Source of the DNA: Octopus vulgaris
Lineage: Eukaryota
Direction: 5' to 3'
NCBI GenBank assembly: GCA_951406725.2
Contig: OX597818.1
Coordinates: 71,858,001-71,922,000, forward strand
DNA: 64,000 bases
Within the stretch, counting starts at the first letter, position 1. Every line of letters begins with the position of its first letter. The translations under genes and the position numbers were made by a program. Positions 8,253 through 64,000 of the stretch are shown here, in pieces. Below the pieces are notes generated by a model that saw only the letters and a list, made by a program, of their open reading frames with translations, was not told where the DNA came from and searched no databases.

Positions 8253-9156
8253 AAAAAACAAATGAAATCCAAACTAAAAATAGAACAGCAACGAACCATG
8301 ATAAAACGATAGCAAGAAAAGCCCCTTCATGGTAAATACTGGACTAAACTAAATGCAAAATAAATAGACAAAGAAAAATCCCAGCAATGGTTGAGAAGCT
8401 CAGGACTCAAAGCAGAGACGGAGGGATTTTTAATTGCAGCACAAGACCAAAGCCTCCCCACCAGAAATTACCAAAACATGTAATGAAAAGAAATATAACA
8501 AGTAACTGTAGAATATGTGGAGATGGACAAGAAACAATAAATCATATTATCTCTGGCTGCTCAGTCCTGGCTAAGAAGGAATATATTCACAGACATGACA
8601 GAGTTGGAACCTACATACACTGGAAACTATGCCAACATTATGGAATAACAACAGAAAAAAGATGGTATAGGCACACACCAGAAAAGGTCACAGAAAACGA
8701 GAAAGCAACCATACTCTGGGATATGCCGATACACACAGATAGAGAAATTAAGGTAACATACCAGATATAGTTGTCAGAGATCATGAAGAAAAAAATGCTT
8801 TCTACTTGATGTATCAATACCGGCAGATGACAACGTGTCTCTAAAAGAAATGGAGAAACTTTCAAAATACAAAGACCTGGAAATAGAGGTAACCAGAATG
8901 TGGAATCTAAAAACAAACAATTCCTATCATAGTAGGTGCATTAGGCATGATAAAAAAATATTCAGACAAATACATAACAAAAACACCAGGACTTATAACA
9001 TACAGAAAATTGCACTACTAGGCACTGCATACATCCTACGCAGAACACTTTCCATACAATAACCATCAGAGCATCACAACAAATCACAGCACATACCTAA
9101 GGCACACAGAGCTGCGCTCGGTAGTGAAGTGAAAGCATGCTATAAAAATAAAACTA

Positions 9157-9159
<3 letters not shown>
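8253..9159 (+). mobile_element. 5'-truncated R4/Dong-like LINE, family A
   Basis: CRICGDGQETINHIISGC zinc knuckle, RHD motif, WDMPIHTD and EKLSKYKDL (RLE domain). Frameshifted and flanked by (AAT)n on both sides. Confidence 0.9.
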
Positions 9160-9193
<34 letters not shown>

Positions 9194-9196
<3 letters not shown>

Positions 9197-10296
9197 TCTC
9201 GTGTGAACACGAAAGCAGCAAAAAGCTGCATTCTATTGTCAAGGAAGCTTATAAGTTCGAAAGGGAACTAGACATTAACCTTGAATCAGATGAAGAGCCG
9301 GAAACCACTGCTACCAGGCAAGCAAAGCGAATCAAGCAGACTGCAAAAAAGAACGGGCAGAATCAAATTGAGAGGCGGTGGAGCCACAAGCCCCTGCATG
9401 GACAATATATTCTCCGAAGCCAAAATGCTGATGTAGACCAAGCAACAACCCATCAGTGGCTGAAGAGTTCAGGATTGAAAGCAGAGACTGAAGGCTTCAT
9501 ACTGGCAGCACAAGATCAAAGCTTGTTTACCAGAAATTACCAGGCTAACGTTCTCCGAAACGGTACTGACCCTAAATGCAGATTCTGCGACACATTTGAC
9601 GAAACAATAGACCATCTCGTTTCGGGATGTCCTGTGCTGACACCAAACGAAAACAAAAATCGCCACGATAGGGTAGGACAGTATATACATTGGAAGATAT
9701 GTAAACACTACAAATTCGGCACTCCTGCTAACTGGTATGAACACCATCCTCAGCTAGTTGTTGAAGGTAAAAATGTCACCATCCTCTGGGATTTTCCAGT
9801 CAACACTGACAGAACGATCAAGGCTAATCGACCAGACATAATTGTTAAAGACAAGGAAGAAAATATCTGCAGACTAATAGAGGTAAGCGTCCCCACTGAT
9901 AAAAATATATCTGTAAAGGAATTTGACAAACTTAGTAAATATAAGGACCTGGAAATCGAAATACAAAAGATGTGGAATCTTAAAACAAAAACTGTTCCTG
10001 TTATTGTAGGTGCCCTAGGTATGATAAAAAAGGGATGTCAGAAACACCTAGACAATATCCCTGGAGAACCATGTCTCAAAGAAATCCAAAAGATTGTGCT
10101 AACAAGTACTGCCCACATCCTTAGAAAAACCCTATCAATGTAAATGTTTGTGTTGTATTACATGGAGTTATTTGTCTACTTCCCCTCCCCAAGCTTTCAG
10201 CTATATTTCAACAACTCTTAACCTTCACTTGCCCTAGAGCGCTGGGTGTGCCCCGGCAAGTGATTGCATCAAACATGCAGATTAAAAGTAAATGGC
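9194..10296 (+). mobile_element. 5'-truncated R4/Dong-like LINE, family B
   Basis: ORF 9475-10143: AAQDQSL, CRFCDTFDETIDHLVSGC, RHD, NRPDII, KLSKYKDL. (AAT)n on both sides. Confidence 0.9.
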
Positions 10297-12920: not shown

Positions 12921-13092
12921 TATAGATATATAGATATATAGATATAGATTTTTAATAAAATTTTCGTTTTTTTCTATTATTTTTTTGGGGGAATTCCTCA
13001 TCTTTAAAATGTGGTCTGAGTAGACCCGAATGAAATCGGGTTATAATATCGAAACAAGTAAAACAATAAAAAGACTATGCTAATCTAATCCC

Positions 13093-13146: not shown

Positions 13147-14654
13147 AAAACTTTTATCTGACGAAGTAGGTAATGTCTTAATGGAAACTTTTAAAATGTT
13201 CCAATGAAGTATTCATCAACTTTGACGGATTTTATCTTAAGCCAATTAGCAAACCTCTACGTCGTTATTGAAGCCGCTGAAATAGCAGCTTAATCTCCCT
13301 CAAACCACATCTGCGTTCTTAAATACAGAGGTATACATTCGATAATATTTGAAGAGGTCGAAATAATTACAGCTAGAAAACCTTTAATTATGTCTGCTCT
13401 GTCAGGGCTGTCCAGGGTTAAAAATGATGATGATGATGATGATGGTGACATTTTTAGGTATCTTAAATTTGTGAAGACAGCGTTGACTTAATACTAGATT
13501 ATTGACTGATTCAAAAACTAAAGGTATCGGATAGGTGACAGGTCAATAACTGGGAACTTAGAACTAATTAAATAACAAATTGAGAGACAAATAGAATCGC
13601 TGATGGTTGTGAAGAAGACACAGATTTTCCTGTGGTTGTTATTGTTACGTTTGTTGTTGTTGTTGTTAGTAGTAGTCTTAGTGTTGTTAGTGTTGTAGTT
13701 GCTGTTGTTACTGTTACTCTTGTTGGTGTTTTGTTGTTGCTAGAGGTGATGTTATTGTTGTTTATAGTGTTGGTGCTATTAGTTTTGGTAGTGTTGTTGA
13801 TGTTGGTGTTGTTGATGGAACTGTTGGTTTTGTTAATGTTATTCTTATTGGTGTTGTTGCTGTTTGGGTCTAAGTCTAAGTCAGGCCCAACCAAGCATGC
13901 ATATGATCTAACTCTTTCAAAATTCCCTTCTCTGTTTCTTTTTTAATGTTTTAAAATCATTGAGGATGCATTGTATAGTGGTTAGGGTGTTGCACTCACA
14001 ATCGTAAGAATATGGTTTCGATTCCTGGACCGGGGAGTGCACTGTGTTCTTGAGAAAGCACTTCATTTCATCGGTCATGAGAAACAGATGAAACCAATAC
14101 CAGATTTTAAAAAAATAACTACTATGTTCGATTTGTTTAACTACACCCTTCAAGATGGTACCTTAGAATGGCCGAAGTCCAATGACTGAAACGAGTAAAA
14201 GATAAAAGATATCTGCAGACAGGCCGTTTCGAAATTATGCATATTATCAGTGCAGATTGCAAGTGTGCTGTTATTTTCAGGTGAGAAAGTCAGTGAACTT
14301 TTTTGTAAATTAAAACTAAATGTAAAAACTACTTCTCACTTTTTTTTTCTCTGCTATAGGCATAGAATCACTTGAGCTAGATTCCGTGTGAAATATTTTC
14401 ATCATACTTTGCATTGTGTCTGAGGGGCATTCTACTCTAAGTGTATAATTTGTTTCAGGTGATGCCTGATTTCTGTATAACGTATTACTAGAATATGCTT
14501 TACAATTCCAACCAAGTGTTTACATATTTTTCCACTTCCTTAAACTTCATTTCATTTGGTATCTTCGCTGCCCTATTCATTTTATCACACGCATATAGGT
14601 AATGCGCCTTTTATTTCAAACTGATTATAATGTACTGTTTTACATTATAAAATG

Positions 14655-20980: not shown

Positions 20981-21087
20981 ATTTAATTGTTTTCCATACA
21001 TCGAGTTGAAAAAGTTTCAATGGCTGAAACCGGTACTAAAATGTTTTTATAATAAAATTATTTTAGCATTTTCTACCTTGACTTTTC

Positions 21088-21163
<76 letters not shown>

Positions 21164-21269
21164 AAAAGTCAAGGTAGAAAATGCTAAAATAATTTTATTA
21201 TAAAAACCTTTTAGTACCGGTTTCAGCCATTGAAACTTTTTCAACTCGATGTATGGAAAACAATTAAAT
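20981..21269. repeat. 109-bp inverted repeat centred on (TA)n
   Basis: Arms 20981-21089 and 21161-21269 are reverse complements with one mismatch seen. The arms contain GGCTGAAACCGGTAC. Confidence 0.95.
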
Positions 21270-21710: not shown

Positions 21711-22828
21711 TATATATATGTGTGTGTGTAAATATATATATATATATAGTGAATTAATGAACTTATGTAGGCACACGGCTAAATTTAAAATGTCGAATAT
21801 AAATATACCATATGGATAGAGTATATATTTTGTATTTTGATTTTTTGATTTTGATTTTGACTCTTGAGCGCTACGACGGACCTATAGCAAAGTCTTATTG
21901 TTTCTACATATATATTAGGAAAAACCTACAAACTTTGTTTTCATGTTATTGTATTGCATAAGATTACCTTGATTATTTATATTACCTTGATTATTTATAA
22001 ATGACCCAAAATAGGATGTTATATTTTATTTTATATGTCTTTCGTATATATTTTTATTAATGCACCCATTTTTTAAAAGCAATGTTTTTTTAAAAAAAGC
22101 AATGTTGTCAAATTTAGAATGTTTATATAAGTTTGTGTATAGCAAAGCATATATATTTGTAAGCATGCGTATCTGTGTATGTGTAAGTGAAAGTATGCTT
22201 GTGCTTAAGCACGCATACACACGACGGTATGTATATGTATCAATTCAAACTTGTGTATGTATACTGGCCTCTATAGATGCCAATAATATCGCTACAAGTT
22301 TTTTCCCCACCCCTCCTTCGTTCCTTTTTCTCTCTTTCCCTTTCTTTCGTTCCCCCTCCTTGCTCAGTATATGAGAATTGCTACATAGATGAATTTTAGC
22401 TTGCGTGCGAGACGGTTTGCGTGAATATATGTACACATGCTTTTATGTGTATAATTTAGATTCATATTCATACGTCTGTATATGTATGTATGGCGTTTAC
22501 GCGCATCCTTTTGTGTATGTTGATATATATATGTGGATTTTAATATAAATATGTATTGCAGTATTTATAACAGGTTTAATTTCTATGCATTAATTTGTAC
22601 TGTCTTCATTAACGGCAATAGGTTTTTTCCTCGGTTTTTTCCTCGGATTTTATAATTTTTATACGTTTTTTTATATATATATACATATATTTTTGACCTT
22701 TTTGTTTATCGCTCGAAGATTGACCGTTTTTTCTAAAGGGCCAATCAAACAAGTCCATTTCTTTTTAAAGGTGTAGCGTTTGTAAGAGTATAGATTGAAT
22801 TAATATATATGTTCCATTCTAGCAAAAA

Positions 22829-22866
22829 CTGTCTGATGAACGGCAACGAGAAACTCAGAGTAACAG
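22829..22866 (+). ncRNA. Type I hammerhead ribozyme motif
   Basis: CTGT-CTGATGA-A-CG(GCAA)CG-A-GAAACTC(A)GAGTA-ACAG. Helix I CTGT/ACAG, helix III ACTC/GAGT, GUA site. Confidence 0.65.
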
Positions 22867-22899
22867 ATTTTGTTGAATTTTCTGCTGCTTAAAATAAAG

Positions 22900-22987
<88 letters not shown>

Positions 22988-22989
22988 TA

Positions 22990-23215
22990 TGTGTGCCTGT
23001 GTGTCTTTGTGTCTATGTTTGTCCCCTCACCATCGCTTGACAACCGATGCTGGTGTATTTATGTCCTTGTACCTCAGTGGCTCACCAAAAGACACCGATA
23101 GAATAAATACCTGGTTTACTAACAATAAGCGCTTGGGTTGATTTCTTCGATTAAAAAACCCTTTAAGGCGGGACTCCAGCATGGCTACAGTCAAATGACT
23201 GAAACAAGTAAAATA
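22990..23215 (+). mobile_element. SINE 3' portion (related copy 25120-25330; inverted copy ~27860-27990)
   Basis: TTTGTCCCC...GACAACCGATGCTGGTG...CGATAGAATAAATACC...CAGCATGGC..CAGTCAAATGACTGAAACAAGTAAAA. Confidence 0.7.
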
Positions 23216-23219
23216 ATAA

Positions 23220-23520
23220 ATTCAGATGAATATGGTACTTAAGTTAAAGGCACCAGAATTTAGTATGGTTTTATCCATATAATTCAAAATCGGGTGATTA
23301 TAATCAAAATAAGCAACAAGGATATCCAGAGGTAATGCAGTACGATCGTTTCATGCAACTCCATTTAATTGAACAAGGCAAATATTATATCAATTTAAAG
23401 TGTAGAGCAATCTTCAGCTGCACAAAAATATAGAATTTATTTTGCATTGTTCAATTAAATGGAGTCGCATGAAACGATCGTACTGCATCACCTCTGGATA
23501 TCCTTGTTGCTTATTTTGAT
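23220..23520 (-). mobile_element. Short hammerhead-bearing element with inverted arms (same family as 57305-57945)
   Basis: Arms 23303-23384 and 23438-23520. The segment 23220-23320 is the diverged reverse complement of 57845-57945. Confidence 0.75.
23335..23423 (-). ncRNA. Type I hammerhead ribozyme motif
   Basis: GTGCAG-CTGAAGA-TTGC...GCAT-GAAAC(GATC)GTA-CTGCAT. 6-bp helix I and a palindromic loop III. Confidence 0.7.
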
Positions 23521-23884
23521 ATATACATATATATATATATAAGTACAAAGTGAAATAGGGGTTATGAGTGTAACCCACTATGGGATATCAGTTATCCAAT
23601 ATACAGCTAGTGAAGTACCCAAAAGACTAATACATAAATGCTAATAATTGCAATGCAATTAGTTCATTTATTGTATTAGATGGGCGAAGGTAAAATATTT
23701 TACCTCAAAATCAAAATACAAATAAGAAAATGGAGGAACAGATTCCTTTCAATCATCAACTTACAGATAATACCAATTCAAATTATTTATTAACTACTTA
23801 AATAGGAACATCCAAATCCAACAGAATAAAACAATATACATCAATAATTAAGATAATACCATAAAAAGAATACATATAAAATGG

Positions 23885-24001
23885 ATCTTACAGCTGTTTC
23901 AGCCTGTAGATAAAGGTATCTCATTGTGCCTATATTAGTCATATGTATTGAGGTAATATGCACTTAAAAATGAGTATATATCTCAAGGCCTCGTCAGAGA
24001 T
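23885..24001 (-). ncRNA. Type I hammerhead ribozyme motif
   Basis: ATCT-CTGACGA-GGCCT...AGGCT-GAAAC(AGCT)GTA-AGAT. Confidence 0.7.
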
Positions 24002-24068
24002 TATAAAGTACAATTATAAAAATATAAAATGCAAATATAAATATGAAACAAAATGCACATACACAAGA

Positions 24069-25978: not shown

Positions 25979-26039
25979 TTGCCGCTGAAGAGGGAAAAAT
26001 TTCTTATGAATTAACCCCGAAATTGGACCAATACGGTAA
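25979..26039 (+). ncRNA. Type I hammerhead ribozyme motif
   Basis: TTGCCG-CTGAAGA-GGG...CCC-GAAATTGG(A)CCAATA-CGGTAA. Helices I, II and III all pair, with an AUA site. Confidence 0.7.
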
Positions 26040-26678: not shown

Positions 26679-26729
26679 AGCTTCCTGAAGATTTCTCTTG
26701 AATGAAACAGTTCTAGTCCTGTAGAAGCT
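26679..26729 (+). ncRNA. Type I hammerhead ribozyme motif
   Basis: AGCTTC-CTGAAGA-TTTC(TCTT)GAAT-GAAACAG(ttctagtc)CTGTA-GAAGCT. Perfect 6-bp helix I and a GUA site. Confidence 0.7.
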
Positions 26730-29119: not shown

Positions 29120-30490
29120 TATTATTTATTTATTTATTTTATTTTATCTAGTTTCAGCTCACGAGCTGTGGCCATGCTGGGGCATCGCCATTTGGTGTTG
29201 CTACATGATTTTACTTCACGAATGCTTTTTAGCAATTGCCATTTGGTGCATGAGAGAGTTCGATGCAGCTGCCCTCATCTGCACCTCCTGCCGTGAAGTT
29301 GGTTCACCTGGGACACCTGACAGGAAGAGATCCAGTTTTATTTTAAAGACATCTGCATCCACCCCATGCAGGTCTCTCAGGTTCTTCGGGAGGATATTGA
29401 AGAGCTGTGGGCCTCTGAAGCCCAGGCTATTACAGTATCTTGTTCTACATCTTGATGGCAAATTTGGAGTCCTTGGCACTATGCAGTGGCGCCCAATTCT
29501 AGCATTTGTGTAACTCTCGATGCCAAAGTTTGGGACAAGTCCTTCTAGGATCTCCCAGATGTACATTATGGCGTATCTTTCTCGCCTACGCTCTAGGGAA
29601 TAGAGTCTTAATCTCTTGAGTCTTTCCCAGTAGCTTATATGCTGCACAGAGGCTATCTTCTTCGTGTAGCTTCGTTGGATCGCCTCAAGTTCTGTGATTA
29701 ACTTGACACTGGATGGTGACCATAGCTGAGAGTAATAGTCAAAGTGGCTTAGAACAAGTGTCCTCCAGAGGACCATCATGGTTTCCTGGTCTCTTGTTCT
29801 AAAGGTTCTAAGAATCCATCCGGTCAGCTGCCTACATTTCATTGCCAATTTAGCAACATGCACATGAAAGGTTGCATCATCACTCATGTAAATACCCAGG
29901 TCTCGCACTGATTGTGCCTCTGGGATTGCAATCCCTCCAGGTCCAATGTATTTATTGGGTATTGCATTTAGTTTTGCATGATGATAGAATAAAGCTTGTA
30001 ACTGTTCAGCATTGAACTGCATGCTATTCTTTTCAGCCCACTTGTATATTTTGTCCAGCTCACATTGCAGGTGCTTAGTGTCTTCAGGGTACTGTATTGC
30101 CTGTGAAACTTTTGTATCATCTGCATAACTTGTGATCGTGGATCTCTGCGTGGCTGAGGGCATATCTGAGAGGGCCATTATGAACAGTAGTGGTCCCAAA
30201 ACAGTGCCTTGCGGAACACCGCTCACTATTTGCGTGTTAATGGAAGTGGCCCCATTGGCTACTACCACCTGACTTCTATCCTTCAGAAAGTCATGAAGCC
30301 ATTCTCCCAATTTTCCAACTATGCCAAGATCCCGCAGTTTGTGATATATCATTCCATGATCGACTTTGTCAAAGGCCTTTGCAAAGTCGAGATATATGAC
30401 TTCCACATTTGAGTGGTTGAGCAGTCGTTTCAGCACCTAGTCATAGTGTTGTAGGACTGAGTTAAGCAGCTTCTTCCTGGTCGGAAACCA
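29120..30490 (-). mobile_element. 5'-truncated CR1-group LINE, RT ORF 29216-30436
   Basis: YLDFAKAFDKVDH, GVPQGTVLGPLLF, YADD, VRDLGI and YWERLKRLRLYSLERRRER motifs, with a (TAAA)n tail. Confidence 0.92.
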
Positions 30491-35163: not shown

Positions 35164-35671
35164 TTTATACGTTTTATCCTCCAGAGGCCGATTTAACAAA
35201 CTAGAACCTCTATTCCCTCACTTCACTCTTCTTCATATTATAGCTTTTTATTTTTTTGTCCTCGGGATTATCCTTTCGACGTATTTCATTATAGAGTGTC
35301 CTAGCTACAACGTCATGTCTCATCGGAAGATAATACCGTGATGACATTTTCGGACGACTGCTTATGATGTGGGTGATATTTTCAGTGTGAACACCATAAA
35401 TTATTACAGTATTTGGTCCAAGACAAGTTCTTTCAGCCGTTGATCATTAGTGGCAATTATTCCAGTCTTTGATTGTAGACTAAGCAGTATCACCTAAACA
35501 TGAAAAGCAACATAAACTTCCCTCTAGTCATTCAGTTAGCCCTAAGATAAACGGCTTTCAGGTTCTCTTTCACTGCGCAACATAGATTACTTCATCGTAC
35601 AAACATTGAGGATGAAGGAAGTCCGTGAAGTCCTCTAAAGATATGTTGACTGGACCCACTTCTATAACTCG

Positions 35672-35773
<102 letters not shown>

Positions 35774-35794
35774 CCTACCTATCTATCTATCTAT

Positions 35795-37501
<1,707 letters not shown>

Positions 37502-44700: not shown

Positions 44701-44780
44701 GAAGTGAACATAAAGAGCCGAAAGAAATGCTGTTAAGCATTTCGTCCGACGCCCAAACAACCACACAATCTCGCTGCCCT

Positions 44781-44815
<35 letters not shown>

Positions 44816-44832
44816 TAATAATAACAATAATA

Positions 44833-45480
44833 ATGGACAAGAAACAATAAATCATATTATCTCTAGCTGCCCAGTCTTGGCTAAGAAGGAATATATTCAC
44901 AGACATGACAGAGTTGGAACCTACATACATTGCAAGCTATGCCAACATTATGGAATAACAACAGAAAAAAGATGGTATAGGCACACACCAGAAAAGGTCA
45001 CAGAAAACGAGAAAGCAACCATACTCTGGGATATGCCGATACACACAGATAGAGAAATTAAGGCCAACAGACCAGATATAGTTGTCAGAGATCATGAAGA
45101 AAAAAAATGCTTTCTAATTGATGTATCAATACAGGCTGATGACAACGTGTCTCTAAAAGAAATGGAGAAACTCTCAAAATACAAAGACCTGGAAATAGAG
45201 GTAACTAGAATGTGGAATCTGAAAACAGAAACAATTCCTATCATAGTAGGTGCATTAGGCATGATAAAAAAATATTCAGACAAATACATAACAAAAACAC
45301 CAGGACTTACAAACACATATAACATACAGAAAATTGCACTACTAGGCACTGCACACATCCTACGCAGAACACTTTCCATACAATAACCATCAGAGCATCA
45401 CAACAAATCACAGCACATACCCAAGGCACACAGAGCTGTGCTCGGTAGTGAAGTGAAAGCACGCTATAAAAATAAAACTA

Positions 45481-48962: not shown

Positions 48963-51900
48963 CTAGCATTATCGCCCGGCGTTGCTCGGGTTTTTAAGGG
49001 AAATAACTATATAAGCATTTTTAGAGAGTTATAGCCAAAAAATAGCAAAAAAATGCATTAAAAATTGAAAAAAAATTAAGGTAAATTTTTTTTTAAATCG
49101 TTGACACATCGTAGATATTTTTAGAGAGTTACTTCCCTTATATAAAAGCGAAAAAAATGCGCATTAAAATGGAAAAATATGATGGTAAATTTTTTTTAAA
49201 TCGTAGACTCATCGTAGACGCACGCTAATACCCAGAAGGGCTCGATATGAATCACGACTATAAGATACCCGCTTTTGGTTAAACTGCACCGCAAAATGTG
49301 GGAGTAGTTAGGAATCTAAATCGTAGGAGACAGACACACAACTTCACTCTTATATAAAGATGCTTTTTTTTTCAGTCATAGAGTTAGATTTATGAAGGTC
49401 TTCAGTAGAAAATCCTTCGAATTCTGACTCGCTGCTTGATATAATGAAATTCGTATCCATTTTTTGTCAGAATTACAAATTTTGAAAACACAATAGGAAA
49501 TGAGTAAAATAAAAACCAACTTACCTTTTCTGTCCGTCCGTGTGTCTTTGCAAATGTGTTGGAATGATAAGTGAGTTGTGATTTGGCGCCTTTTTTACTA
49601 ATAACAAACACACACGTGTTTGTATGTAGTTGTATGTGTATGTAGTTGTATGTAGTTGTATATGTATGTGTATGCGTGTGTGTGAGGAATGACACACACA
49701 CACTCACGCACGTACACATGTACATCAATACTTTCGGAGTGATATGTTAAAATATTGAGTTTTCTCGAATTTTGTCTTAATTGGTGGTAAAATTGAAAGA
49801 AATTTTTTATGGTATCACCCACTGAAGTACTCTGAAAAATCTTAGGTAAACTCTAATTGAAGAAATTGTGTATTTATTTGTTTCTGTTTGCTGTGTTTTT
49901 TTATTTTTTGAGTAGTGGTTTAAATACTTTCACTTTAGTCTTCCTCAAATCACTCTGTCGCTATTTACTTTCATTTTATTCGTCGCACACTGTGTGTGCG
50001 TTTGCGTGTGGTGTAAACCAGACTAAGAAAAGCATTTGACACACACACCAGAATGTGAGTTTTCTGTAAATTTTGCTTAATTGGAGTTTAAATTTTAAAA
50101 ACTGGACCTGGCATGACGCGATGCATTGTACTCTTAAAAATGCTAGGTAAATTGTAATTGAAGAAATCCTATATTGTAGATTTGTATAACTCCCAAAGGG
50201 AGGCAGATAAAATCTGCCTTTTATAATAAGACTAGCAGAATTGCCCGGCGTTGCTCGGGGCTGAATTGCTTGAAAGTACTGTTAATGATTGCACTGAATT
50301 ATGATGATTATTCAGGCAAATATTGAAATAAGCTTACGGTGGGAGGTAAGGACTTAACGCCAAACGTGTGCCATTGCATTGTTTTGGGGGAACCAAATTT
50401 CTGATGAGCATTATAGGGGCACTAACTTTAAGTTTGAGAAAGTGTGGTGGTAGTCCGGGGTGCTCAAAGCAATTGAGTACCTCTATTGGATAGTTGATGA
50501 CGTCCTCTGGGTCAGGAGTTGTATCGATAGACTGATATACATCGACTTCCCCAGGAATGAGTTTTAGCATTTCATCATTAATATGGTGAACAGTTTTATT
50601 CCTCGGGGCCAGTATAGCCTTTTTTGCCAATCCAATCCATATTCTGATAATTAGCTTGTAAATCTGGGAACACTGCATCTCTGAGATCAGAAGGCGTCTT
50701 AACAATGGTACAAATGGAATCGATGGCAATATTACCATTTTCATCCCCTGGTATTTTGCCTTCGCCAAGTGCAAGGAGGGTGTGAGGAAATGCTGGTGAT
50801 GTGATATTACGTCGCATATGAGCACGCATATTGGTGTGAAGTTTGAGAGTTACTTCCGTTTATTTTAAAAAATATGCATCAATGGTACAAATGGAATCGA
50901 TGGCAATATTACCATTTTCATCCCCTGGTATTTTGCCTTCGCCAAGTGCAAGGAGGGTGTGAGGAAATGCTGGTGATGTGATATTACGTCGCATATGAGC
51001 ACGCATATTGGTGTGAAGTTTGAGAGTTACTTCCGTTTATTTTAAAAAATATGCATTAAAATGGAAAAAAATGATGGTAAATTATTTGTAAAATCATAGA
51101 CTCATCGTAGACGCGCGCTAATACCCAGAAGGGCTCGATATGAATCACGACTATAAGATACCCGGTTTTGGTTAAACTGCATCGCAAAATGTGGGAGTAG
51201 TTAGGAATCTAAATCGGAGTAGACTGACACACAACCTTTCTTTTATATATAAATACATACATACACACACACATACATACACACACACACACATACATGC
51301 ATACATACATATACACATAAACCGAGTAAAAAATTTCAGTTATCTCTCTCTTTCACACATTACTCTCTGTCTCTTCACACACACTAACAGAAGCACTTCA
51401 CTTACACAACATACTGTCTGTCTCCCACACTCCATCAAACACACACACACACACATGTACATCAATGAGTCCCATGCACGGTAACTTCAAAGGAACTTCC
51501 CTCGTCATACAATCGCTTTCTCTTAGTCTCTTTCGCTCTCATTACTTATGTAAAAAAATAAAAGTTTTTTCTATGTGTGTATACAAGGAAGTGGGAGGCA
51601 GAGTGAAAGAATCACTCACTACAGTAAGTGAATTACTTTCATTTATTCCTTGCCCACTGTGTGTGTGCGTTTGCGTGTGCTGTAAACCAGACTAAGAAAA
51701 GCATTTGACACACACACCAGAATGTGAGTTTTCTGTAAATTTTGCTTAATTGGAGTTTAAATTTTAAAAACTGGACCTGGCATGACGCGATGCATTGTAC
51801 TCTCAAAACTGCTAGGTAAATTGTAATTGAAGAAATCCTATATTGTAGATTTGTATAACTCCCAAAGGGAGGCAGATAAAATCTGCCTTTTATAATAAGA

Positions 51901-53475
51901 GATATTATATATATATATATATACTAGCAGTATCGCCCGGCGTTGCTCGGGTTGTAAGGGAAATAACTATATAAGCATTTTTAGAGAGTTATAGCCAAAA
52001 AATGCATTAAAAATTGAAAAAAAATTAAGGTAAATATTTTTTAAATCGTTGACACATCGTAGATATTTTTAGAGAGTTACTTCCCTTATATAAAAGCGAA
52101 AAAAATGCATTAAAATGGAAAAATATGATGGTAAATTTTTTTAAATCGTAGACTCATCGTAGACGCACGCTAATACCCAGAAGGGCTCGATATGAATCAC
52201 GACTATAAGATACCCGCTTTTGGTTAAACTGCACCGCAAAATGTGGGAGTAGTTAGGAATCGAAATCGTAGGAGACAGACACACAACTTCACTCTTATAT
52301 AAAGATGCTTTTTTTTTTTCAGTCATAGAGTTAGATTTATGAAGGTCTTCAGTAGAAAATCCTTCGAATTCTGACTCGCTGCTTGATATAATGAAATTCG
52401 TATCCATTTTTTGTCAGAATTACAAATTTTGAAAACACAATAGGAACAAATTTCGGAAAAAAATCTCCCATAATTCACGGAATTAAAATTACACTTCGAT
52501 TTTTGTACAAAACTGTAGTTGAAGTGTTTACGAAGTATAATACGTGTTTTCACGAATGTACTAAAGAGATTTGCTCTGATATTCTCATTTAAATATGAAT
52601 AGGTAAATTCGGGCGGCTTGGTAACTATATATAAGTGTCGTCTGTTTATACATAAACACTGTTTCATACTGCAATTATGTATACATATATCTATATATAA
52701 TATTATATAATAAAATATATACAGAGTAAAATAAAAACCAATTTACCTTTTCTGTCCTCCGTGTGTCTTTGCAAATGTGTTGGAATGATAAGTGAGTTGT
52801 GTTTTTGCGCCTTTTTTACTAATAACAAACACACACGTGTTTGTATGTAGTTGTATGTGTATGTAGTTGTATGTAGTTGTATATGTATGTGTATGCGTGT
52901 GTGTGAGGAATGACACACACACACTCTCGCAAGCACACATGTACATCAATGCTTTCGGAGTGATATGTTAAAATATTGAGTTTTCTCGAATTTTGTCTTA
53001 ATTGGGGGTGAAATTGAAAGAAATATATTATGGCATGAGCGAATGGAGTACTTTGAAAAATCTTAGGTAAATTCTAATTGAAGAAATTGTGTGAGGACTA
53101 AATGGTTATGTATTTATTTGTTTCTGTTTGCTGTGTTTTTTTATTTTTTGAGTAGTGGTTTAATTACTTTCAGTTTAGGCTTCCTCAAATCACTCTGTCG
53201 CTATTTACTTTCATTTTATTCGTTGCCCACTGTGTGTGTGCGTTTGCGTGTGGTGTAAACCAAACTAAGAAAAGCATTTGACACACACACAAGAATGTGA
53301 GTTTTCTGTAAATTTTGCTTAATTGGAGTTTAAATTTTAAAAACTGGACCTGGCATGACGCAATGCATTGTACTCTTAAAAATGCAAGGTAAATTGTAAT
53401 TAAAGAAATCCTATATTGTAGATTTGTATAACTCCCAAAGGGAGGCAGATAAAATCTGCCTTTTATAATAAGAGA
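48963..53475 (-). mobile_element. Tandem array of three composite Helitrons (48963-50231, 50232-51902, 51924-53475)
   Basis: On the minus strand each unit starts TC(TC)TTATTATAAAAGGCAG and ends with a CCCGAGCAACGCCGGG hairpin plus CTAG. Confidence 0.9.
50334..50850 (-). pseudogene. Helitron PIF1-like helicase fragment
   Basis: AILAPRNKTVHHIN...YPIEVLN...GLPPHFLKLKVSAPIMLIRNL...CNGTRL, frameshifted. Confidence 0.9.
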
Positions 53476-56702: not shown

Positions 56703-57172
56703 CTTGTGCGCGAGCGCGCGTGCATCTGTGATACTTAATTTTAATTATTGGCATCAAATTTTGGCACATACCCTCGAGGGTATGTTTGTGTCAATGTTTT
56801 TAGTAGCACTATGATACACACACACACACACATGTACACACACAGACAAACACACATACATGTACACACACAGACAAACACAGATGCATGCCCATATAAC
56901 GATAAACATCATAGAAGAACAGAATGGAATAAGCAGAGCAATAGCAAACATGAAGACAGAAAGTGTCACTGAGGAGGTCACAGGTGTGTTACGAAAGATT
57001 TCCGGACAATGGACATGAGTTAGAATAAAAACAGTAATATACATATATATCGTGCGGGTGTTTATTTGACAAAAAAATGACCGTTCCTAAATACAACAGT
57101 ATATATATATATATATGTATGTATATACGTATATACATGTATATATATATATACACATAGATACATACATGC

Positions 57173-57263
<91 letters not shown>

Positions 57264-57304
57264 TAGATAGGCAGATAGATGTATGTGTGTATATTGTTGC
57301 TTAT

Positions 57305-57945
57305 AAAATAAGCAACAAGAATAACTTCGGTAATTTGGTACGATCGTTTCATGCTAATCATTTTATTAAATGTTGGAAGTATTACAACTGTTTTAAAATG
57401 CTGAGCACTCATCGGCCATTAATAGAGGTTTTCCATTAATACATAATTTTCATATCAATTGATAACATTATAGAGAAGGTAGATATATAGACAAAGATGT
57501 GGATTTAAATTTTAAGAACATTTAAGGTAGTGGAGTTTATCAACTGACTGAAGAATATTCAGTTGTTTTGAACTGCTAGAAGGTTTTGAGAAGAATGAAC
57601 AATTGAAAGGAGACAAGAAAGATTTTCTATTTATAGAAATTGGGGTGAAATAGATGTCAAAGTTCTATATAAAGAAATTGAGGTAGAGAGAAAGGGTTGT
57701 CAACCCTTGATATGAAAATTATGTATTAATGGAAAACCTCTATTAATGGCTGATGAGTGCTCAGCATTTTAAAACTGTTGTAATACTTCCAACATTTAAT
57801 AAAATGATTAGCGTGAAACGATCGTACCAAATTACCGAAGTTATTCTTATTGCTTATTTTGATTATAACCACCCCATGGATTTATATGGATAACACCATA
57901 CAAAATTCTGGTGCATCTAACTTAAGTACCATATTCGTTTGAATC
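57305..57945 (+). mobile_element. Hammerhead-bearing element with 154-bp inverted arms
   Basis: Arms 57305-57458 and 57707-57860. The tail is shared with 23220-23320. (TA)n lies nearby on both sides. Confidence 0.8.
57747..57829 (+). ncRNA. Type I hammerhead ribozyme motif
   Basis: TGG-CTGATGA-GTGCT...AGCGT-GAAAC(GATC)GTA-CCA with a long extended helix II. The antisense arm copy has CCGATGA. Confidence 0.7.
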
Positions 57946-57961
57946 TAAATTTTGCTGAACT

Positions 57962-57992
<31 letters not shown>

Positions 57993-60510: not shown

Positions 60511-64000
<3,490 letters not shown>

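Follow-up and report, generated by a model that had tools for sequence, protein, structure and literature searches.

The ~670-base element located at 57294-57962 is read here, with a probability of roughly 0.88, as a Penelope-like retrotransposon (Penelope-like element, PLE) that inserted once and is now dead, made of two shortened copies in head-to-head orientation, probably belonging to the Hydra clade or lying near it. Both copies represent the same repeat end, and each bears a hammerhead-ribozyme motif. The window, i.e., the whole 64-kb stretch of DNA that was analysed, is AT-rich, animal-type DNA packed with simple repeats, and TA-rich simple repeats border the element on either side. A PLE pseudo-LTR architecture had been proposed in a preliminary description, and every structural test run supports it: a second truncated copy forms an inverted pseudo-LTR (402 + 256 nt, head-to-head), a tail extension is present at one end only, a palindrome lies at the inversion junction (57692-57708), a hammerhead motif is found close to the 3' end, the insertion sits in (TA)n, and 5' truncation and inversion points vary among copies (at least seven other junctions, declining contig depth). 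Since an RT/endonuclease partner was not found, PLE membership and clade fall short of proven.

Anatomy of the Element

The features of the element and of its relative in the window are as follows, with the kind of evidence in brackets where this was recorded.

57100-57293, no strand: simple repeats flanking on the left, namely (TA)n, (CA)n and mixed ones (sequence)
57294-57318, no strand: left-end fold-back palindrome with arms of 11 bp around a 3-nt loop
57305-57706, minus strand: left copy, tail-less, 5'-truncated, 402 nt (contig joints, loose ends, depth)
57336-57418, minus strand: hammerhead motif of type I with U4C in the core (CCGATGA), cleavage being predicted after 57339
57692-57708, no strand: palindrome marking the actual inversion junction, with arms of 8 bp around a single central nucleotide (57700)
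57707-57962, plus strand: right copy, tailed, 5'-truncated, 256 nt (sequence and contig depth)
57747-57829, plus strand: hammerhead motif of type I, intact core, predicted cleavage after 57826
57861-57962, plus strand: tail of ~102 nt, right copy only (contig loose ends and depth)
57963-57986, no strand: right flank of (AT)n (sequence)
23215-23519, minus strand: related family in reversed orientation, tailed minus copy with a whole hammerhead at 23417-23341

The inverted arms (57305-57458 and 57707-57860) are 154 bp each and identical at 150 of 154 positions (97.4%). That each of them holds a hammerhead, with CTGATGA on the plus and CCGATGA on the minus strand, was already claimed in the preliminary description and is borne out by alignment and motif search, while the limits given there (57305-57945) have to be extended to 57294-57962. 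The same description saw a full terminus together with an inverted partial terminus; the head-to-head arrangement stands, but the inverted copy is the longer of the two and there is no short partial arm. The left copy comprises its 154-bp arm and a 248-nt interior, which is the pyrimidine-rich region upstream of that arm. The four differences between the arms, of which those in the left copy include U4C and one broken helix II pair, are as expected from decay after insertion.

The two copies end at different points. The left copy terminates at GCTTATTTT, 34 nt past its cleavage site, and the right copy continues to 57962, 136 nt past its own, where the fixed right end of the family, GCTGAACTT, abuts (TA)n. 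The tail contains a stem-loop (57909-57931), 31 nt from the right end, and a stem-loop is also found in the relative at 23220. TT is present at both termini of the element, and the outer arm of the palindrome at 57294-57318 is an additional inverted copy of the terminus.

Hammerhead Motifs

In the right copy, the motif reads TGG-CTGATGA-(58 nt)-GAAAC-GATC-GTA-CCA (57747-57829), with TGG/CCA as helix I, intact CTGATGA and GAAA core segments and a helix II region of 58 nt; apart from CCGATGA in place of CTGATGA, the motif of the minus arm is alike. Helix II amounts to ~17-20 bp with internal loops, and helix III consists of two pairs closed by GATC within the palindrome ACGATCGT. The type I core (CUGANGA, GAAA and UH) and the three helices are thus all found, the core being intact in the right copy and carrying U4C in the left one. 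The U4C core change would be expected to reduce hammerhead activity. More generally, core changes usually reduce activity, and a helix II that opens with U-U is tolerated (PMC3088659).

A descriptor demanding at least 3 bp in helix I, pairing at the base of helix II and a helix III that is palindromic gave four hits in the window (57750 plus, 57415 minus, 23417 minus and 23997 minus). None of 100 dinucleotide-shuffled windows yielded a site, and only 1 of 100 did so when the palindrome was no longer required. As a second null, 53 metagenome loci matching the core letters were examined: 0/53 combine a helix I of at least 3 bp with a palindromic helix III, and blastn related none of them to the element. 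The hammerhead motif is more than a chance occurrence. The Rfam hammerhead models gave no match to these motifs, and the Rfam output consisted of simple-repeat and hairpin noise; as the short motif at 22833 is likewise missed, these models are insensitive to hammerheads of this kind.

Other hammerhead-like sequences occur in the window. The short hammerhead just mentioned (22825-22905, plus), CTGT-CTGATGA...GAAACTCAGAGTA-ACAG, resembles Hydra-2_aMil (PMC8557442), and (TA)n starts ~36 nt beyond it. A third hammerhead family (23530-24010, minus; motif at 23997-23889) has a helix II region of 90 nt (-20.6 kcal/mol), a palindromic helix III, ACAGCTGT, and ~360 nt between its site and the next (TA)n. 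Two further candidates, in which helix I has 6 bp, lie ahead of (TA)n tracts at 25985-26033 and 26685-26723 (plus), and a weak one lies at 13158. Several PLE-type ends are grouped in the 22-27 kb part of the window.

The Relative at 23215-23519 and Selection on the Fold

The element at 23220-23520 had been described as related, with a common tail and GTGCAG/CTGCAT instead of TGG/CCA as helix I, and this is confirmed by an alignment with 77.9% identity over 213 columns, tail included. It has only one whole hammerhead: its plus arm, an inverted copy of ~80 nt stopping at the same GCTTATTTT point as the left copy at 57305, keeps the GAAAC half of the motif and lacks the CTGANGA half. The relative has no outer palindrome, and its tail is interrupted by another repeat. 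The end of that tail is replaced by a short repeat (23000-23215, with pieces near 13051, 14178, 55474 and 56449), which is presumably an octopus SINE.

Preserved pairing in spite of sequence change had been put forward as a sign of selection on the fold, and this holds for parts of it. Between the two families, two of the three shared helix I pairs are changed on both sides and helix III is invariant, while the upper part of helix II is out of register. Within the family, the eight listed variants in helices I and II, which are unphased, comprise five that keep or gain a pair, two that break one (the pair is lost unless a second change compensates) and one located in a loop. None of the variant places listed falls in the 19 core positions (0/19, P = 0.21, not significant alone). 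Judged from these alignments, helix I covaries between the families and appears to be under selection, with a hint of the same at the helix II base; selection on the upper part of helix II would be no more than a possibility. Compared with shuffled sequences, helix II of the element folds only weakly better (34/500 as good), as is that of the 23220 family (99/500), and that of the third family at 23997 is clearly better (2/500).

The Repeat Family in Public Contigs

The family stretch was found in 20 of 24 listed runs, covering four organisms. Contigs were aligned for four runs from three organisms, with 57459-57958 as the query (the left arm being left out) and an 80% cut-off. The numbers aligned per run were 2830, 3123, 310 and 1038, mostly with 90-99% likeness, and the repeat is a high-copy family in all three organisms. 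Summed contig depth is no copy number and only its shape is informative: it culminates in the tail (57918-57934), is high over the arm and over 57459-57526 and, in two runs, falls from ~1e5 at 57459-57526 to ~1e3 at 57680-57696, a drop of about a hundredfold toward the 5' side that could also stem from divergence past the 80% cut-off. The right end is fixed, since loose ends reading TGCTGAACTT and then (AT)n were found in 32 and 39 contigs of two runs.

Joints linking 57459/57460 to 57706/57707 on opposite strands were observed in all four runs, and in other copies the bases just ahead of the arm (before 57706/57707) match the opening bases of the interior in reverse complement. These joints and reverse-complement loose ends identify the interior as the upstream part of the left copy. 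A fixed inversion at 57459/57707 common to many copies was considered for the same joint and rejected, the joint being the natural continuation of the left copy. At least seven other junctions from interior to arm or tail were found, with contig depths of 4-54, so that inversion breakpoints are copy-specific; among those listed are 57498>57911, 57515>57722, 57515>57730, 57521>57885, 57522>57907, 57562>57768 and 57632>57915. Position 57789 is C in both arms and A in >99% of the family depth, and this shared C suggests that both copies were made from one template in one event.

Variable inversion breakpoints, together with the architecture, argue against a DNA transposon with fixed ends, and they largely refute the idea of a Helentron-derived HINE/DINE-1-like repeat or of a long-armed MITE in which the hammerhead would be a chance or captured feature. 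Such an origin is quite improbable, even though the element resembles HINEs in the TT at its start and end, in the left-end palindrome and in the 3' stem-loop, whose distance of 31 nt falls within the 8-35 bp described for these repeats (PMC4067079), and even though its inverted arms are long. The subterminal inverted repeats of HINEs measure 12-15 bp and are found 38-60 bp from the 3' end (PMC4067079), against 154 bp and 102 bp here; a MITE with terminal inverted repeats (TIRs) would not be expected to have a 102-nt extension on one side and inner limits that vary between copies. The relative at 23220, with an arm of ~80 nt and no outer palindrome, also disagrees with a DNA element, as does a ribozyme motif kept across two families that are 78% alike and have helix I changed on both sides. 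The preliminary description had named the TIR/TSD signature of a DNA transposon as the sign contrary to its reading; what was found is a one-sided tail and variable inner limits, target duplication being unreadable within simple-repeat flanks.

Predicted RNA Folding

In fold predictions of the monomer, the hammerhead lies 3.4 and 6.4 kcal/mol above the minimum-energy fold for the two arms, and the pair probability of helix III is 0.005-0.09. The helix III palindrome by itself is predicted to pair between two molecules (-12 kcal/mol); a two-strand prediction with two copies gave another structure and no dimeric hammerhead. In read-through RNA of either strand, a 154-bp duplex is predicted (-299 and -281 kcal/mol), in which the hammerhead pair probabilities are 0.000 on both strands.

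The 97.4% likeness of the arms, which would form a long duplex, and the presence of family contigs in one run guessed to be RNA could be taken to indicate that selection maintains the opposed pair as a device at this locus, for example as a terminator that cleaves itself in both directions or as an origin of double-stranded RNA with a regulatory role. This is the least probable of the readings weighed here and can be credited with very little. Each arm has private changes, among which U4C alters the core and another disrupts a helix II pair, as in neutral decay, and the breakpoints are copy-specific. Moreover, the antisense arm is transcribed first whichever strand is read and, given the pair probabilities of 0.000, the two motifs are predicted to be incapable of assisting each other. 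As the predicted read-through duplex would hide both ribozymes, the opposed pair is probably an insertion by-product.

Proposed Insertion Mechanism

The single PLE insertion favored here could have arisen in the following way. A PLE protein encoded elsewhere, combining a telomerase-like RT with a GIY-YIG endonuclease, would nick a (TA)n tract and reverse-transcribe the element RNA, starting at two places located 136 and 34 nt beyond the ribozyme site, with the tail as the stretch between them. Synthesis would then stop early and fold back or switch template at 57700, which would make both copies products of the same event. The hammerhead of the parent element may cut tandem transcripts as a dimer, by way of its palindromic helix III, or with the help of the PLE protein. 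At the locus itself, the opposed pair would be a by-product of insertion and not a two-ribozyme device. Nicking, copying from two starts, early stop and fold-back at 57700 are all inferred from the architecture of the copies.

Search for a Coding Partner and Possible Nature of the Master Copy

The preliminary description had called for an autonomous RT/GIY-YIG partner with the same tail, and none was found in the window or in the protein and sequence collections searched. Pfam was blank for the six frames of the element copy, which offers only ~400 nt. A word-index search gave no protein homolog, and phmmer among 1.84 billion proteins returned one unrelated repeat protein. An RT/GIY-YIG motif scan of the 64-kb window gave nothing convincing, and the tail pattern did not occur in collections of metagenome, viral or prokaryote sequences. 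The possibility that the interior's minus frame is a decayed GIY-YIG end was considered and rejected, as the Pfam, word-index and phmmer searches were blank or gave unrelated matches; by eye, this frame also lacks the C-x-L-C...E-K and N-K-R-x-E motifs of Hydra-clade sequences.

It can also be hypothesized that the master is non-coding, i.e., a non-autonomous PLE derivative of SINE- or retrozyme-like nature which never had a reading frame of its own and was moved in trans. This alternative overlaps the preferred reading and differs from it solely in the master copy being non-coding; we regard it as less likely than not. It would agree with the lack of a frame in the 248 nt upstream, with the 1-, 2-, 4- and 9-nt indels that other family copies show in this region, and with the very high copy number. 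Non-autonomous PLEs have been described in Chlamydomonas (PMC8557442), and animal retrozymes have been argued to come from pLTRs (bioRxiv 2026.07.22.740005). Yet 400 nt could be wholly 3' UTR, and truncation still continues at 57700, which places the 5' end of the master beyond the sequence seen. Nor do the copies form tandem 150-400-nt monomers as in non-LTR retrozymes, and none of the 15 joints listed leads from the tail back to the beginning.

Remnants of other mobile elements occur in the window. Three LINE 3' ends with a restriction-like endonuclease (9133-10140, 8348-8767 and 44703-45383) lie beside (AAT)n and (GAT)n; their relatives are 52-87% identical, those with names coming from marine invertebrates, and presumably the LINE is R4/Dong-like. 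Further LINE frame remnants at 29219-30436 (minus), 35639-36700 and 61312-63998 (plus) appear by eye to be CR1/L2-, L1/Tx1- and RTE-like, and the minus frame at 50849-50337 resembles, by eye, a piece of a Helitron-type helicase. An inverted repeat of ~80 bp surrounds a (TA)n core at 21011-21239, and a repeat is present in three copies (near 50082, 51751 and 53324) within 49700-53400.

Implications

The architecture of the element has already been published for PLEs, and its unusual traits are only the long helix II and the long tail. A bolder proposal, to which we give somewhat less than an even chance, is that of a very high-copy PLE lineage with active hammerheads, a long helix II kept by selection (58 nt; 90 nt at 23997) and a tail of ~100 nt. 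If so, PLE ribozymes in such genomes would be badly undercounted, since neither Rfam nor the published descriptors pick them up, and PLEs described as ribozyme-free may in some cases have ribozymes. The many inverted insertions would also be a source of almost perfect RNA duplexes for RNA editing and silencing. A long helix II lets hammerheads escape descriptors with 7-17-nt spacers as well as Rfam, and motifs missed in this way bear on whether all PLE clades use ribozymes. In addition, thousands of variably truncated inverted copies provide material for reading the PLE insertion mechanism from the genome.

Among the papers listed for hammerhead ribozymes in octopus, none deals with these motifs by title or abstract. 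Hammerheads are unmentioned in the main text of PMC13282606, and PMC6962438 gives just a count of 235 Rfam hits in giant squid. The family is unmatched to published consensi, and Repbase, Dfam or the supplement of the Octopus vulgaris repeat paper may already contain it.

Comparison with Known Elements

Non-LTR retrozymes (PMC7229834; bioRxiv 2026.07.22.740005) are non-coding repeats with type I hammerheads, a trait shared by the present family. They are, however, tandem head-to-tail monomers with canonical ribozymes, whereas an inverted, truncated and dispersed pair is found here.

The Penelope elements of Adineta vaga and Drosophila virilis are similar in architecture. Their pLTRs are inverted head-to-head, one of the two carries a tail, and the inverted junction shows palindromes, which was read as self-priming (PMC3846280); one-end tail and junction palindrome are both present here. 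Their tail measures 31 bp (30-40 bp in general) against ~102 nt, and they have target-site duplications of 8-10 bp where none is discernible within the simple repeats here. PLEs with inverted 5'-truncated copies, tails and (TA)n targets have also been reported in PMC8557442.

The minimal hammerheads of metazoan PLEs (Cervera and De la Pena, 2014, PMC4209133) have the same short helix I and small palindromic helix III. Pairs of motifs on opposite strands, 100-700 bp apart, were described there, as was a low, dimer-dependent cleavage; dimer activity is predicted for such motifs, and opposite-strand pairs occur here as well. A helix II considered "large" in that study has 6-8 bp, compared with ~17-20 bp with internal loops in the present element. 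Precedents for a long helix II are the plant PLE-X1 motifs, which are marked as non-canonical and reach ~53 nt in PLE-X1_sMoe (PMC8557442).

The Anolis Poseidon element PAc (Frangieh et al., 2024, PMC11167929) has a tail bounded by two sites at which reverse transcription starts, and its ribozyme depends on the protein but is dispensable for insertion in vitro. Two start points, putative in the present element, the AT-rich target and the hammerhead upstream of the tail are common to both. The reading frame of PAc begins within the hammerhead; in the present family, an insertion behind 57808 that shifts the frame is common, so that no conserved frame crosses the motif.

Regarding the clade, an octopus Naiad with a "half core" was considered and is unsupported: a whole hammerhead is present, no Naiad consensus matches, and the 3' end of Naiad_Obim differs. 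None of the published consensi of Naiad, Chlamys and Hydra (PMC8557442) contains the short motifs of the element, and the 3' end of Hydra-1_Obim from Octopus bimaculoides differs from that of the element. The Hydra clade is defined by RWK, DKT and a CxCX5C linker, by the lack of CCHH and by RT phylogeny (PMC8557442). (TA)n insertion is also found in Naiads and is therefore not Hydra-specific, and the hammerhead tables compared cover the Hydra clade and not Neptune, Nematis or Poseidon, so that the likeness to Hydra may be non-specific. Considering the features in favor, namely the ribozyme signature, the (TA)n target and the ends 34 and 136 nt past the cleavage site, membership in the Hydra clade can be given about even odds.

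Hydra-clade PLEs (Craig et al., 2021, PMC8557442; e.g., Penelope-1 to -17_HM and Hydra-1_Obim) have a type I hammerhead near the 3' end, as here. With the canonical short hammerhead of this clade, the element shares the core and the stem-base signature but not the size of helix II, since the helix II region has 10-24 nt in Hydra-clade motifs and 58 nt here; the helix III loop is also longer (4 nt against 1-3 nt). The Hydra-clade motif is often TGG-CTGATGA-T/G-TGC...GCA-TGAAAC with a palindromic helix III, and a similar arrangement is observed here. Counted by eye, the helix II base is U-U in 13/24 and G-U in 3/24 Hydra-clade hammerheads, and the base in the present element is of the U-U or G-U type, as in these 16/24 motifs; helix II starts with TGC/GCA in 10/24, and the target is (TA)n in nearly all. 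The consensus ends past the cleavage site fall at 30-48 nt in 10/24 and at 88-153 nt in 11/24 (PMC8557442), against 34 and 136 nt here; Chlamys and PLE-X were excluded from this comparison, as were the inverted duplicate listed for Penelope-13_HM and the element Penelope-18_HMa, which has its motif listed at the 5' end. Finally, an inverted 5'-truncated copy has been noted for Penelope-13_HM of the same clade (PMC8557442), as is found in the insertion described here.
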